From: Candidatus Moraniibacteriota bacterium
GTDB taxonomy: Bacteria; Patescibacteriota; Minisyncoccia; Moranbacterales; UBA2206
Direction: 5' to 3'
Assembly (NCBI GenBank): GCA_030645735.1
Contig: JAUSNP010000002.1
Location: 1-39,999, forward strand
DNA length: 39,999 nt
In this document: piece by piece, positions 1 through 34,113 of the stretch
Layout of the letters: each line of letters starts with the position of its first letter
Numbering within the stretch: the stretch's first letter is position 1
Notes under the pieces: generated by a model
The model's input: only the letters and a program-made list of their open reading frames with translations
What the model was told of the DNA's origin: nothing
The model's database searches: none
Program-made: the position numbers and the translations under genes

Positions 1-119
1 AAAATACTGGTCCGGCGCGGGGCAACCGGTATTTTTTCGCGAATAAGTTGAAAATTTATTTTTGTACGAGCCGGCGGAGAGTTCTTTTTGTTACTTTTTC
101 TTGCGGAAAGAAAAAGTAA
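1..119 (-). repeat. Partial copy (cut by window edge) of structured repeat module B
   Basis: Identical to 32436..32554 over 119 bp by direct comparison; includes hairpin TTACTTTTTCTT-GCGGA-AAGAAAAAGTAA. Confidence 0.95.
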
Positions 120-120
120 G

Positions 121-160
121 GGCAATACTTTTATTTTGCAAAAATAAAAGGGCTGAACAA
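121..160 (-). repeat. ~40-bp AT-rich palindromic leader hairpin
   Basis: GGCAATACTTTTATTTTGCAAAAATAAAAGGGCTGAACAA closely matches the reverse complement of 32104..32145. Confidence 0.8.
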
Positions 161-29716: not shown

Positions 29717-29846
29717 AATAACAAATACAAAATTACAAATCCTAAATAATATCTAAATTCAAATATTAAAAATTCAAAAATGTTTTGGATTTATAATTTT
29801 GAAAATTGTGATTTATTTGGAATTTGTGATTTTAAATTTTGAATTT
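29715..29846. repeat. Degenerate heptamer inverted array
   Basis: AAATAAC/AAATACA/AAATTAC/AAATCCT ... ATTTGTG/ATTTTAA/ATTTTGA; same family as 3188..3322; abuts the topA ATG. Confidence 0.8.
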
Positions 29847-32060
29847 ATGAAACTTGTAATAGTTGAATCACCCACAAAGGCTAAAACTATCACCAAATTT
29901 TTGGGCGCTAAATATGTCGTCAAATCTTCCTATGGCCATATTCGCGATTTGCCGACCAAGAAGATGGGTATTGATATCGAAAAAGATTTTGAGCCGGAAT
30001 ATGAAATTCCCAGCAAGAACATTGATCGTGTGGCAGAACTTAAAAAGCTCGCCAAGAAAGCTGATGGCGTGATTCTAGCAACTGATGAAGACCGTGAAGG
30101 AGAAGCCATCTCTTGGCATCTTGTCGCCGCTTTAGGACTCAAAATTGAGGAAACCGAAAGAATTGCTTTTCATGAAATCACGGAGAAGGCCGTCAAAGCT
30201 GCTTTGGAAAACCCACGTAAGATTGATTACAATCTAGTCGACGCGCAACAAGCACGCCGTGTTTTGGATCGCTTGGTGGGTTATGAATTGTCTCCCTTTT
30301 TGTGGAAGAAGATTCGTCGTGGACTGTCTGCTGGACGTGTGCAATCTGTTGCCTTGCGTTTGATTGTAGAAAAAGAACGAGAAATTTTAGCTTTCAAACC
30401 AGAAGAATATTGGGCTATCGGTGCGCAACTCAAAGCTGGCAAAGCTGAGTTTGAAGCGAAACTTTCCAAAGAAAATGGTACGGCCATTGGCAAGCTAGGC
30501 GTGAAAAACAAAAAACAAGCCGACGCCATTGTGAAATTTTTGGAAAAAGCTGTCTATCAAATTTCCGCTATCACCAAAAAAGAAGTACAGAAAAATCCTT
30601 TGGCACCCTATACTACCTCAACTTTGCAACAAGACTCCAATAATAAATTGGGCTACAGCTCCAAGCAGACGATGATGTTGGCCCAACAATTGTATGAAGG
30701 TATCAACATTGGCAAAGAAGGTTCAGTCGGTCTCATCACCTATATGAGAACGGACAGCATGAACCTATCAATGGAATCCATGCTCAGCGCGCAAAAAATG
30801 ATTGTCAAAAAATTTGGTAAAGACTATGCCCTTGAAAGTCCAAGATTTTTCAAGACCAAATCCAAAGGCGCGCAAGAAGCGCATGAAGCGATTCGCCCAA
30901 CTTTTCCAGAAAAAGATCCAGAATCACTCAAAGAATTTTTAGATCCCAAACAATATAAAGTTTACAAATTGATTTGGCAAAGAATGTTGGCTTGCCAAAT
31001 GGCGCCAGCGGTGATGAATTCAGTGTCAGTGGACATTTCTGCTACACAAAAGGATGCTAAAGATTTCTATGCGTTGCGCGCCAATGGCTCAACTATCAAA
31101 TTCGATGGTTATTTGAAAGTGTATGGTGACAAGGTTCCAGTTAGTGAAAACTTATTGCCCGAGATGCAGGAAAAAGATATTTTAGCTTTGGTCAAAATTC
31201 TTTCTGAGCAAAAATTCACGCAACCTCCGGCACGCTTCTCTGAAGCAACGTTGATCAAAGCGATGGAAGAGCTGGGCATTGGTCGACCATCCACTTATGC
31301 GCCAACTATTTCCACCATCATTGATCGCAAATATGTGGCCAAAGATGAAAACAAGCGACTCTTCCCCGAAGAAATTGGGCTCACGGTGTGTGATTTGCTC
31401 GTAGAACATTTCGCTGATATTGTGGATTATAAATTCACCGCCACGATGGAAGAAAATCTGGATGAAATCGCGGAAGGCAAAAAAGAGTGGGTGCCGGTCA
31501 TCCGAGATTTCTATGGACCCTTCCACAAAAATCTAGAAAAGAAAACCAAAGAAATCAAAAAAGAAGATTTACAAGAAAAATTGGATCGCCAATGTCCGGA
31601 TTGTGGTGGCGATTTGATTATGAAGTTTGGCCGTTTTGGAAAATTCATTGCCTGCGCCAATTATCCAAGTTGCAAGTTCACAGAAAAAACTGATTCCGAA
31701 AAGAAAGTGGATGAGCAACATGCGGGTGAAGTTTGTGAAATTTGTGGCGCGCCAATGCTCGTGAAGCGTGGACGCTTTGGAACTTTCTTAGGTTGTTCAA
31801 ACTATCCAGAATGCAAAGGCATCAAACGCATTGAAAACAAAACTGGTATTCAGTGTCCCAAGTGCCAACTCGGAGAAATCGTGGAACGCAAATCAAAAAA
31901 AGGCCGTGCCTTCTATGGTTGCAACACCTATCCAAAATGTGATTTCGCTCTTTGGAACAAACCGACTGGCGAAAAATGTCCCAAGTGTCAAAGCCTCTTG
32001 GTCTTTGCTGCCAAAGGCAAAACCAAATGTTCTGACAAAGAATGTGGGTTTGAAAAATAA
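29847..32060 (+). CDS. topA: DNA topoisomerase I
   Basis: VESPTKA, DEDREGE, SAGRVQS, ITYMRTD and C-terminal zinc ribbons. Confidence 0.99.
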   Translation: MKLVIVESPTKAKTITKFLGAKYVVKSSYGHIRDLPTKKMGIDIEKDFEPEYEIPSKNIDRVAELKKLAKKADGVILATDEDREGEAISWHLVAALGLKIEETERIAFHEITEKAVKAALENPRKIDYNLVDAQQARRVLDRLVGYELSPFLWKKIRRGLSAGRVQSVALRLIVEKEREILAFKPEEYWAIGAQLKAGKAEFEAKLSKENGTAIGKLGVKNKKQADAIVKFLEKAVYQISAITKKEVQKNPLAPYTTSTLQQDSNNKLGYSSKQTMMLAQQLYEGINIGKEGSVGLITYMRTDSMNLSMESMLSAQKMIVKKFGKDYALESPRFFKTKSKGAQEAHEAIRPTFPEKDPESLKEFLDPKQYKVYKLIWQRMLACQMAPAVMNSVSVDISATQKDAKDFYALRANGSTIKFDGYLKVYGDKVPVSENLLPEMQEKDILALVKILSEQKFTQPPARFSEATLIKAMEELGIGRPSTYAPTISTIIDRKYVAKDENKRLFPEEIGLTVCDLLVEHFADIVDYKFTATMEENLDEIAEGKKEWVPVIRDFYGPFHKNLEKKTKEIKKEDLQEKLDRQCPDCGGDLIMKFGRFGKFIACANYPSCKFTEKTDSEKKVDEQHAGEVCEICGAPMLVKRGRFGTFLGCSNYPECKGIKRIENKTGIQCPKCQLGEIVERKSKKGRAFYGCNTYPKCDFALWNKPTGEKCPKCQSLLVFAAKGKTKCSDKECGFEK

Positions 32061-32076
32061 CATATCTTAAAAAAAT

Positions 32077-32101
32077 ACTCATCCGTAAGGGTGAGTTTTT
32101 T
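32077..32101 (+). terminator. topA terminator
   Basis: ACTCATCC-GTAA-GGGTGAGT followed by a T-tract. Confidence 0.8.
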
Positions 32102-32103
32102 GA

Positions 32104-32554
32104 TTGCCCAGCGTTTTTATTTTTGCAAAAATAAAACAGTATGCCATTTTTCTTTTACCAAAGAACAGGGTGTCCATTTTCTTTGGCAGCAAAGAAAGTG
32201 GACGAAAAGAAACTGCTGCCCAGACTCGTGCTGTCTAAATTTCTAGCTTATTCGCTAAAATTTTAGGGACGACTTTCCGCTAACAGGAGCAGCGAAAAAT
32301 TTCTTAACGCTCATGCGCTGAAATTTAGAAACGCACTTCGTTATGGGCGAATTGGTTTTTCTAGTTTTTTTTTGTTTTAAAAACCCTTCCGCCTTGCGTA
32401 GTACAAAACTATAAATTGAAACTTGTGAGCGCTAAAAAATACTGGTCCGGCGCGGGGCAACCGGTATTTTTTCGCGAATAAGTTGAAAATTTATTTTTGT
32501 ACGAGCCGGCGGAGAGTTCTTTTTGTTACTTTTTCTTGCGGAAAGAAAAAGTAA
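32104..32554. repeat. Composite structured repeat: leader hairpin, module A (+, 32172..32348) and module B (-, 32388..32554)
   Basis: Nested stems and shared loop motifs between A and B; part of B is identical to 1..119. Confidence 0.85.
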
Positions 32555-32619
32555 AAACAATCCCCTCTTGTTTTTTACCCCCCTCTGGACTATACTAAAA
32601 AATATAAAAGAAACTTCTT

Positions 32620-34113
32620 ATGGGCAAAAATTCGATTACAATTGAGGATGTTTTGAATAAGTTGAAGGTCAAAAGAACTTCCCAGAGAGAGGCATTGATT
32701 CGCAGTGCTTACGAATTCTCTTTGATGGCTCATGCTGGCCAAAAAAGGAAGTCCGGCGAGGATTATATTCAGCATGCGCTGCACACTGCCCTCAACATCG
32801 CCAAGATGGGTATGGGTAGCAAAACCATTGCGGCTGGCCTGTTGCATGATGTGCCGGAAGACACCACTTACACGCTTGATGAGGTTGAAAAAAAATTCGG
32901 TCCAGAAGTGGCGTTTATGGTCAACGGTGTGACTAAGCTCGGCAAGATCAAATTGCGCGGTACCAAGGAAGAATATTATTTAGAAAATTTGCGCAAAATG
33001 TTTTTGGCAATGGCTTCGGACATTCGCGTAGTTATCATCAAACTGGCTGACCGCCTACACAATATGGAAACGCTCTCGGCTTTGCCAGAAGATAAACAGA
33101 AACGAATCGCGCTAGAAACTATGGAGGTTTTCACGCCGATTGCCAATCGCCTTGGAATCGGCGAAGTCAAAGGCGCACTGGAAGATCTATCTTTCAAGCA
33201 TCTTGATCGGGAAAATTATGACAAAATCAGAAAAATTCAAGAAGAAGAATATGCTCAAAGAAAAAAGTACCTCGATCGAGCGGTGGTTGAGTTGCGCAAA
33301 GAATTGACCAACGACGGCATCAAGGTTTTAGATATTTTTGGCCGATCCAAACATCTCTTCCGTCTTTTCCAGAAACTGAAAAAGCATGATATGGATATCA
33401 ATAAAATCTACGACCTCATCGGAGTCAGAATTATTTTGCCCGATATTTCCGATTGCTATGCCGCGCTGGGCATCGTGCACAAAAAGTATCGACCCCTCGT
33501 TGGAAGAATCAAAGATTATGTTTCTTTGCCCAAGCCCAATGGCTATCAATCCATCCATACCACTGTTTTTGGACCAGAAGGAAAAATTATGGAAGTGCAG
33601 TTGCGCACTCGGCAAATGGACGACGAAGCTGAATTTGGAATTGCGGCACATTGGATTTATAGCGACAAGAACCAACAAAGTTTGCGCCATCTGATTTTCG
33701 GCAACAAAGGCAAGGACAAACTCAAAGTGCCGGAAAAAGAATTGGCTTGGGTCAAACAATTGCAAGACTGGCAAAACGAGCTTGGCAAAGATGACGCTGA
33801 ATTCATTGAGAGTCTCAAAATTGATTTTTTCAAAAATCACATTTTTGCTTTCACGCCTCAAGGTGATGTGATTGATTTGCCGGAAGATTCCACACCCATT
33901 GATTTTGCTTACAAATTACACAGCTCCATCGGCAACCGCGCCACCGGCGCCAAAGCTGATGGCAAGATGGTTACTTTGGATTATAAAATTAAAAATGGCC
34001 AAGTAATTGAGATTTTGACTGTCAAAGAAAATAAAAAACCCAGTCGAGACTGGCTAATGTTTGTGCGGACTTCCCTAGCTAAGAGTCAAATCAAAAAGGC
34101 TTTCAAAAAATAG
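32620..34113 (+). CDS. relA: RelA/SpoT homolog (HD, synthetase and TGS domains; C-terminally short)
   Basis: QKRKSGEDYIQH, LLHDV, KLADRLHN, RIKDY, NGYQSIHT, EVQLRT, FTPQG and DFAY. Confidence 0.93.
   Translation: MGKNSITIEDVLNKLKVKRTSQREALIRSAYEFSLMAHAGQKRKSGEDYIQHALHTALNIAKMGMGSKTIAAGLLHDVPEDTTYTLDEVEKKFGPEVAFMVNGVTKLGKIKLRGTKEEYYLENLRKMFLAMASDIRVVIIKLADRLHNMETLSALPEDKQKRIALETMEVFTPIANRLGIGEVKGALEDLSFKHLDRENYDKIRKIQEEEYAQRKKYLDRAVVELRKELTNDGIKVLDIFGRSKHLFRLFQKLKKHDMDINKIYDLIGVRIILPDISDCYAALGIVHKKYRPLVGRIKDYVSLPKPNGYQSIHTTVFGPEGKIMEVQLRTRQMDDEAEFGIAAHWIYSDKNQQSLRHLIFGNKGKDKLKVPEKELAWVKQLQDWQNELGKDDAEFIESLKIDFFKNHIFAFTPQGDVIDLPEDSTPIDFAYKLHSSIGNRATGAKADGKMVTLDYKIKNGQVIEILTVKENKKPSRDWLMFVRTSLAKSQIKKAFKK

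Follow-up and report, generated by a model that had tools for sequence, protein, structure and literature searches.

A dispersed hairpin repeat with an almost invariant apical core in a Moranbacteria-type genome and in other phyla

The window studied here, the whole stretch of 39,999 nucleotides that constitutes contig C3 of the source genome G000, contains between topA and a relA/spoT homolog a tail-to-tail doublet of structured modules, and this doublet consists of two diverged members, one A-type and one B-type, of a dispersed non-coding hairpin repeat family. The genome, which is of the Moranbacteria type of the candidate phyla radiation (CPR), comprises 964,923 bp in nine contigs (C1-C9) with 40% GC and is 97.7% complete. 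The arms of the long hairpin in the module change freely and stay complementary, while its apical core is almost invariant. It is moderately probable, in our judgment, that the family represents undescribed, cross-phylum, structure-dependent non-autonomous repeat or mobile DNA of the kind that includes repetitive extragenic palindromic (REP) sequences, bacterial interspersed mosaic elements (BIMEs), enterobacterial repetitive intergenic consensus (ERIC) sequences, and miniature inverted-repeat transposable elements (MITEs), and not a dedicated RNA gene.

The doublet occupies the 560-bp spacer from topA (29799-32060, +) to the relA/spoT homolog (32620-34113, +). A first-pass annotation made from the sequence alone had described two homologous modules with one architecture, and module A on the plus strand and the reverse complement of module B do align end to end over ~180-190 nt; the motifs it had listed as common to both, AAAAGAA, CTCGT, TAAATTT, CTTATTCGC, and TTARCGCTCA, recur in this alignment. 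The tail-to-tail arrangement it proposed also stands, while the bounds were corrected with R1, a covariance model whose structure was set by hand and whose source was five A-type copies, to 32171-32360 (+) for A and 32379-32555 (-) for B. The left boundary it had placed at 32104 was set too far to the right because the repeated unit reaches further left and includes a hairpin at 32077-32096. Aligned with each other, A and B reach a similarity of only about 57%, and in the single-stranded DNA (ssDNA) fold they do not pair with one another; R1 detects B with an E value of 2.3e-12 even though it was constructed from A-type copies only. A whole unit of ~32150-32548, with the spacer between the modules included, has been copied recently and is 98.5% identical to G000:C9:177678-178085. 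The 20-nt hairpin at 32077-32096 (with up to 3 substitutions allowed) occurs six times in G000, and in 6/6 cases a module of the same orientation begins just downstream of it. Many copies are preceded by an AT-rich hairpin, P0; in several G000 copies, hairpins related to it (TTTTATTT-loop-AAAAATAAA) stand before P1, the 5' hairpin of the module, and TTCTTTTACCAAAGAAC upstream of P1 is common to four copies.

Module A folds with -63.8 kcal/mol (z -4.12) and module B with -57.8 kcal/mol (z -4.52), values equaled by 0/200 dinucleotide shuffles in each case, and the ssDNA fold of 32064-32560 is a row of separate hairpins (z -8.07, 0/100 shuffles equal). All subfamilies have a common fold composed of a near-perfect P1 of 13-15 bp, an A-rich linker, and an imperfect long hairpin of ~150 nt, in which a closing helix of an A-run and a T-run is followed by a GC stem, helices around TAAATTT/AAATTTA, and the core TCGCTAAAA ... 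TTTYTTAACGCTC around a variable apex. Pair counts over 64 distinct R1 matches from 45 loci, in an alignment fitted to the model, gave 89.1% of cells paired and two-sided changes in 49/49 pairs, which 0/500 shuffles matched, with 40-50% in slid controls; in P1 of module A, 15/15 pairs show two-sided changes over the 64 distinct sequences and 94.5% of cells are paired. In an alignment-free pairing test anchored on the core, which covered 116 cross-phylum elements, the helices outside the core had 5.08 positions paired with their own partner versus 3.76 when permuted, and the helices inside the core had 4.65 versus 2.81 (SD ~0.1). That the stems differ and yet pair, as had been noticed within the single locus, is therefore borne out beyond it, across the order and across phyla, by both the model-fitted and the alignment-free tests. 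The earlier statement that the module belongs to no named noncoding RNA family agrees with a scan of the whole window against Rfam 15, which gave 0 matches at the gathering score; at E up to 10, positions 32000-32700 gave sub-threshold noise only, and 10 cross-phylum loci yielded no match to the module and only one unrelated RNase P RNA. A conserved small open reading frame (ORF) in the module was ruled out by eye, given the stop codons in the core and the indels in the stems.

In G000, nhmmer gave 25 matches with E <1e-8 and R1 gave 28, about 20 of them full or cut by a contig end only and 8 partial. Tail-to-tail doublets of two different subfamilies exist at seven loci of this genome, and doublets are also present in the relatives G003, G081, G110, and G126. 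The subfamilies of G000 have 2-4 copies each that are 95-98% identical (the three B-type copies are mutually 98% identical), with 77-87% for the best copies in other genomes, and segments are shared among subfamilies in a mosaic manner. The copies adjoin housekeeping genes, and one lies antisense between infB and rbfA. Six contigs, C1, C3, C4, C5, C6, and C8, begin or finish in a copy. In the sequencing run that held 0.90 of the sampled words, the contig depth summed over the repeat was 100-340 versus 13.5 in the flanks, and no empty site was seen in the DNA contigs of four runs.

Comparison with relatives demonstrates gain and loss of copies. Synteny of topA and relA is found at about 20 of the 30 relatives' loci, with spacers mostly of 0-260 bp and two of ~570 and 1,200 bp, and among the 30 relA loci examined only G000 has the repeat in this spacer. 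Between the congeneric genomes G110 and G003, whose flanks are 76-89% identical, a 439-bp doublet is present in G110 and absent at the G003 site, and its match at another G003 locus is a doublet with 95% identity; one G110 module fills a site that in G003 is an 11-nt stop-to-start spacer, and another replaces a 115-nt G003 spacer between divergent genes. No target-site duplication was found at the 11-nt site, which is the sole site with abutting G003 flanks, or at the ends of the copied G000 doublet. Junctions are often within P1, truncated P1 remnants stand next to full P1s, and solo P1 hairpins are frequent in G031. At L120:2440-2860 (G110:C14), a module fills the whole spacer between divergent genes and leaves ~10-15 nt to each start codon, so that the promoters of both genes would have to be inside the module. 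Small GC-rich hairpins of the CCTGCCGGC... type and the GTCATTCCGGC...GCCGGAATGAC type, which are further mini-repeat families, are inserted in, or replace parts of, AT-rich modules of relatives; such sites were seen in G003:C21 (in a module orthologous to L118:2531-2719), in a G003:C14 spacer (L130), and at L034, L094, and L098.

The R1 scan of the order covered 151 genomes, and because 17 candidates were scored per genome the resulting counts are minima: full-length copies occur in at least 37 of the 151 genomes, at least 21 of 76 genera, and at least 8 of 12 families. In an even phylum-wide sample, 3 of 151 genomes were positive. The single copy at G225:C6:804-986, from a genome of another family in the phylum, scores 134 bits by R1, above most copies in the order, and this resemblance suggests a recent horizontal transfer. 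For a wider search we used the 22-nt core as a pattern of 9-nt and 13-nt halves, which matched at least 115 loci in genome contigs, against ~4 expected by our own estimate. The taxa matched were Breznakibacter xylanolyticus DSM 6779, Prolixibacteraceae, Paludibacteraceae, a metagenome-assembled genome (MAG) of Parabacteroides, Anaerococcus, Sulfurimonadaceae and other Campylobacterota, Ignavibacteriales, Kryptoniota, Balneolia, and other CPR groups. The titles of the public records are not reliable for all of these matches, since one titled "uncultured Bdellovibrionales" (L133) lies on the same contig as G033:C32, from a genome of this order, with the same R1 coordinates and score. Raw pattern matches with at most one mismatch numbered 51, 24, 7, 6, and 58 in five non-CPR genomes (0-1 with the reversed control) and represent roughly 40, 24, 7, 4, and 45-55 distinct copies, which are fewer because of overlapping rows of one copy and look-alikes of a core half; per genome, there are 7 to about 55 copies in Bacteroidota and Anaerococcus and 4 convincing ones in the Sulfurimonadaceae MAG. 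P1, linker, GC stem, and core are all present in the cross-phylum copies, together with a common apical motif, AACTC-hairpin-TCAAACAG, and R1 gives E values of 1e-6 to 8e-9 for copies from Breznakibacter, Prolixibacteraceae, Gracilibacteria, Portnoybacteria, and Peribacteria. The distribution is patchy and crosses phyla. Carriage by phages was rejected, with just 1 match in viral contigs. No such repeat was found in the literature on repeat elements, MITEs, and structured or noncoding RNA in Patescibacteria/CPR or on the core sequence, supplementary files being outside the scope of that survey. In a Bacteroidales MAG, two copies of a tRNA 3'-end (GGTTCGACTCCAGTAC...) enclose a core-like motif (L182:5216-5280), which may represent a separate element with a tRNA gene as its integration site.

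In Breznakibacter, the module is the interior of a classical MITE. About 40 copies of a ~345-bp element are 95-100% identical, and the 18 copies aligned have sharp ends, inverted termini of ~26 bp (GGCTCT...), and, in most cases, 8-bp direct duplications of AT-rich targets. A long variant at L264 (G165:C6:78500-79500) and L265 has three extra segments of 60-84 nt, situated in P1, the linker, and the 3' arm, and Parabacteroides copies have, in the corresponding position, a segment similar to the linker insert. The near-identical copies of the Parabacteroides MAG (G169, about 45-55 copies) have a differing apical stem of 5-6 bp, such as GCTTCC/GGAAGC, GCTCAC/GTGAGC, GCTTAC/GTAAGC, or GCTCC/GGAGC, and pairing holds in every one of them, so the apex combines hypervariability with compensation. 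A Prolixibacteraceae genome (G166) has tandem module arrays with a period of ~880 nt, at C1:3215553-3217371, C2:757655-758608, and C2:3851975-3852905, and scanning one such unit for ORFs (L200) revealed none longer than ~160 codons and no recurrent one.

The first-pass annotation had offered a structured RNA or a non-autonomous ssDNA mobile element; the side of repeat or mobile DNA is now favored over that of a dedicated noncoding RNA because the family is multi-copy and has near-identical copies, differs in presence and absence among relatives, and shows no consistent strand asymmetry and no bias in the orientation of neighboring genes. The counts for the two orientations of the flanking genes are 56 versus 44 on the left and 44 versus 43 on the right. 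If the family is DNA of this kind, the doublet would have been inserted, or copied in as one unit of ~400 bp, between the end of topA and the relA/spoT promoter. In the CPR, spread would proceed via folded ssDNA, perhaps by nicking at the hairpins in the manner of HUH enzymes or REP-associated tyrosine transposases (RAYTs) or by recombination or template switching at P1. The invariant core might be the site read by a trans-acting factor, whereas the complementarity of the arms could be kept by the requirement for a hairpin together with template switching that corrects palindromes. The design of A-run, hairpin, and T-run might be tolerated, or even used, as a terminator-like intergenic spacer.

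Several findings weigh against repeat or mobile DNA, one of them being that no mobilizing enzyme was found near the copies or by family searches. The genes neighboring the copies were checked for a cognate nuclease or transposase, as the first-pass annotation had advised, and there is none beside them, the neighbors being housekeeping genes; no recurrent protein exists beside 80 cross-phylum loci either, the biggest cluster covering 5 of the 80. TnpB (PF07282) has 0 matches in G000, which led us to reject a link with TnpB and omega-RNA. PF01797 has two weak RAYT-like matches only in this 97.7% complete genome, and no classical TnpA was found. These two Y1 genes, at C6:214761-215399 (-) and C9:212964-213581 (+), encode 212 and 205 amino acids, score 31.6 and 63.7 bits against NF047646 (cut-off 80), and are flanked by GC-rich GTAG hairpins of their own (CTGTAGGGG...CCCCTACAG; GGTAGAGACG...CGTCTCTACC), which represent a second hairpin repeat system in G000 unrelated to the module. 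In 40 relatives, the presence of Y1 genes does not track the repeat: Y1 matches are lacking in the repeat-positive genomes G021, G031, G033, and G039 and present in many repeat-negative ones. A RAYT link was rejected on these grounds, namely, the different hairpins, no module beside the Y1 genes, and no co-occurrence. A retroelement link was also dropped; the sole reverse transcriptase, 2.6 kb from one doublet, is part of a diversity-generating retroelement. The GGCTCT ends and 8-bp duplications in Breznakibacter, which we had presumed to be ISL3-like, did not gain support, since ISL3 was rejected as the mobilizer with 0 matches of this family in Breznakibacter, and its transposase was found neither in G000 nor in the Parabacteroides MAG. 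A cargo gene inside the hairpin was rejected as well; all collected loci and G000 together gave four candidates with a split core, three of which are explained by neighboring copies, as probably is the fourth (624 nt, L169).

The pattern of conservation is also awkward for repeat or mobile DNA. The most conserved part of the element is the apex of the hairpin and not its ends, and the core is kept inside the Breznakibacter MITE, although transposition of a MITE should need its terminal repeats only, which suggests that the core has a function of its own. One module orthologous in G110 and G003 is ~95% identical, versus ~89% for the flanking coding sequence and ~65%, by eye, for the adjacent non-coding sequence, and its better preservation points to constraint or gene conversion. 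In addition, comEC, rplU, prmC, and one convergent gene pair have modules beside them in more than one genus and family. The strand signal belongs here as well. In the CPR set, an unbiased self-alignment of the palindromes gave 103 G-U versus 119 A-C oppositions, and free-energy folds were better for the reverse strand in 39/57 cases; because of these two results, a 3:1 G-U excess in the model-fitted alignment (165 versus 54 A-C) was discarded as a fitting artifact. In the cross-phylum set, A-C outnumbers G-U by 439 to 221, and for all 114 elements the numbers are ~356 and 255 after subtraction of the one A-C per element that the core pattern forces in cross-phylum counts (470 and 255 before it). 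After removal of the forced mismatch, the asymmetry is weak and takes opposite directions in the CPR and cross-phylum sets, so a strand-specific function in some lineages is conceivable.

A structured RNA with its own function, either a small RNA or a cis-acting element of untranslated regions, might have become multi-copy via mobile DNA, and its core would then be a binding or active site. We regard this explanation as rather unlikely, and yet it is a serious rival because the apex, not the ends, is conserved. The 9 + 13 nt of the core, which the search pattern demanded exactly, recur over several phyla while the adjoining stems covary; the retention of the core in a MITE that should not need it and the compensated apical stems of Parabacteroides also speak for an RNA, as do the better conservation of the orthologous copy relative to the neighboring non-coding DNA and the placing of copies in conserved gene neighborhoods. 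The C-A opposition in the core reads as a U-G pair on the reverse strand, where A-C also exceeds G-U across phyla, and in every phylum inspected a U-rich tract comes after the long hairpin on this strand. What speaks against an RNA is that no Rfam family matches, that the strand signal is inconsistent, being absent or reversed in the CPR set, and that flanking genes lack orientation bias. No conserved promoter was found, and a promoter scan gave nothing beyond chance, 2 sites versus 1.0 expected, neither of them upstream of a module P1 on the module strand; in several copies, a stop or start codon on one strand or the other is immediately adjacent, and the tail-to-tail doublets would have no room for promoters if the reverse strand were the RNA. 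Copies are, moreover, gained and lost between congeners and, by the minimal counts of the R1 scan, present in only 21 of the 76 genera of the order. A further, unlikely reading is that P1 and the long hairpin constitute an undescribed, widely transferred functional nucleic-acid device, made of RNA or folded ssDNA, whose core recruits a conserved host factor or is catalytic and whose vehicle differs by phylum; taken jointly with this reading, the vehicles would be insertion without target duplication in the CPR, a MITE in Breznakibacter, and ~880-nt tandem arrays in Prolixibacteraceae.

There is, in our view, little chance that the modules are bidirectional terminators or insulators kept by the host at gene ends, with the doublet as a back-to-back pair and repetition due to gene conversion rather than transposition. 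An A-run and a T-run do flank the long hairpin in G000, the hairpin at 32077-32096 fits the terminator pattern, and six copies carry along a canonical terminator hairpin that immediately follows a stop codon; by our reading of the map, 16 of the 23 assessable G000 copies are downstream of a gene on the same strand, and three single copies lie right at the stop of a convergent gene. Mosaic sharing of segments between subfamilies would also suit gene conversion. Orientation and position, however, are not consistent from copy to copy. An ordinary terminator already exists 10-45 nt upstream of P1 in many copies, Bacteroidota have no T-run after the long hairpin on one strand, the elements across phyla adjoin gene ends (100) scarcely more often than gene starts (87), G110 has copies in an 11-nt operon junction and between divergent genes, and the G000 copy between infB and rbfA is antisense. 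The invariant apical core would be left unexplained too. A role as terminator or insulator may instead be a secondary use of the repeat. That A and B resemble each other by chance is practically negligible as an explanation; the intergenic DNA is AT-rich and of low complexity, and its A- and T-runs pair easily, but the z values of the folds (-4.1, -4.5, and -8.1), covariance model E values that go down to 1e-56 for other copies and reach 2e-12 for B, and the dozens of homologous copies refute it.

The features of the window that belong to the repeat are collected in Table 1. The relA promoter (TTGTTT, 17 nt, TATACT; 32568-32596) is just outside module B and matches that of one relative. At the start of the window, a further copy is cut by the contig end downstream of comEC, and the comEC-adjacent modules of G003 and G006 share their neighborhood with the window. 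G000:C5:1-419 contains a B-type copy, a C-type copy, and then the gene that follows comEC in G006; the starts of C3 and C5 probably join, and the break between them would be an assembly gap caused by the repeat.

Table 1. Parts of the repeat family located in the window
Feature	Position	Strand	Basis or remark
GC hairpin (32077-32096) between an A-run and a T-run, immediately downstream of the topA stop codon	32069..32102	+	Terminator scan; terminator-like in appearance, part of the repeated unit
AT-rich hairpin P0, which precedes many copies	32113..32137	+	Forms in the ssDNA fold
Remnant of a truncated P1-like hairpin; the copied doublet starts, on the left, with its right part, TTCTTTTACCAAAGAA	32143..32165	+	Identity with C9 begins here
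P1 hairpin of module A, 15-bp stem and 4-nt loop	32171..32204	+	Folds, pair counts
A-rich linker and long hairpin of module A, with T-run at the end	32205..32360	+	Folds, R1, pair counts, cross-phylum core pattern
Invariant core halves of module A	TCGCTAAAA 32252-32260; TTTCTTAACGCTC 32300-32312	+	
Spacer between the tails	32361..32378	.	Copied along with both modules; same in the C9 doublet apart from 1 T
Long hairpin and A-rich linker of module B, with variant core TCGCGAAAA ... TTAGCGCTC	32379..32526	-	Alignment, fold, R1
P1 hairpin of module B, where the copied doublet ends on its right side	32527..32555	-	Folds; identity with C9 stops at ...GAAAAAGTAA
Partial B-type copy cut by the contig start, downstream of comEC (209-1684, -; Pfam)	1..128	-	BLAST, nhmmer

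CPR genomes of ~1 Mb are generally regarded as poor in repetitive or mobile DNA, and here one hairpin family makes up ~0.5% of such a genome and supplies the DNA directly after several essential genes. The repeat breaks the assembly at most contig ends and can be used as a marker for assembly breaks and strain-level variation. If the family is mobile DNA, it moves across phyla without an identifiable transposase; if its core works as RNA, it represents a widespread, unrecognized RNA class missing from Rfam; and if it is a transferred device with different vehicles, it would be a new class of structure-dependent element and not another REP or MITE. The carriers in culture, Breznakibacter and Anaerococcus, allow experimental tests.

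Among the known systems, the family behaves like the REP sequences, BIMEs, and REPINs (the doublet form of REP) of Proteobacteria, which RAYTs, transposases of the Y1 HUH type, mobilize, in being extragenic, intergenic, multi-copy, and hairpin-forming, in occurring as inverted doublets and hairpin mosaics without target duplications, and in being homogenized within a genome. The REP unit is, however, 20-40 nt long with a conserved GTAG-type head, whereas the unit described here is ~190 nt long, has an invariant apical core, and shows no conserved GTAG-type head in the alignments. Unlike the halves of a REPIN, modules A and B do not pair with each other, and, in contrast to the REP-RAYT system, no RAYT gene is flanked by the module or co-occurs with it. 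With ERIC sequences, or intergenic repeat units (127 bp), and similar rod-like intergenic repeats of enterobacteria, it shares an imperfect palindrome 100-200 nt long that lies between genes or in untranslated regions, compensatory changes in the stems, and variants with additional segments inserted at set places inside the element, of which the long Breznakibacter form is an example, but it has no sequence relation with them, occurs in several phyla, and possesses P1 as a separate 5' hairpin. The inverted termini and 8-bp duplications of the Breznakibacter carrier are those of MITEs such as Correia/NEMIS and RUP elements, while no separate terminal repeats and no target duplication are seen at the ends of the copied G000 doublet or at the 11-nt G110/G003 site, and the conserved part is internal. 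Finally, the palindrome-associated elements of IS200/IS605 (PATEs) and attC-like sites resemble the module in that structure is kept over sequence without target duplication and that action as ssDNA is supposed; they differ from it in that no classical TnpA or TnpB was found in G000, the modules do not form cassettes, and no strand bias was shown.

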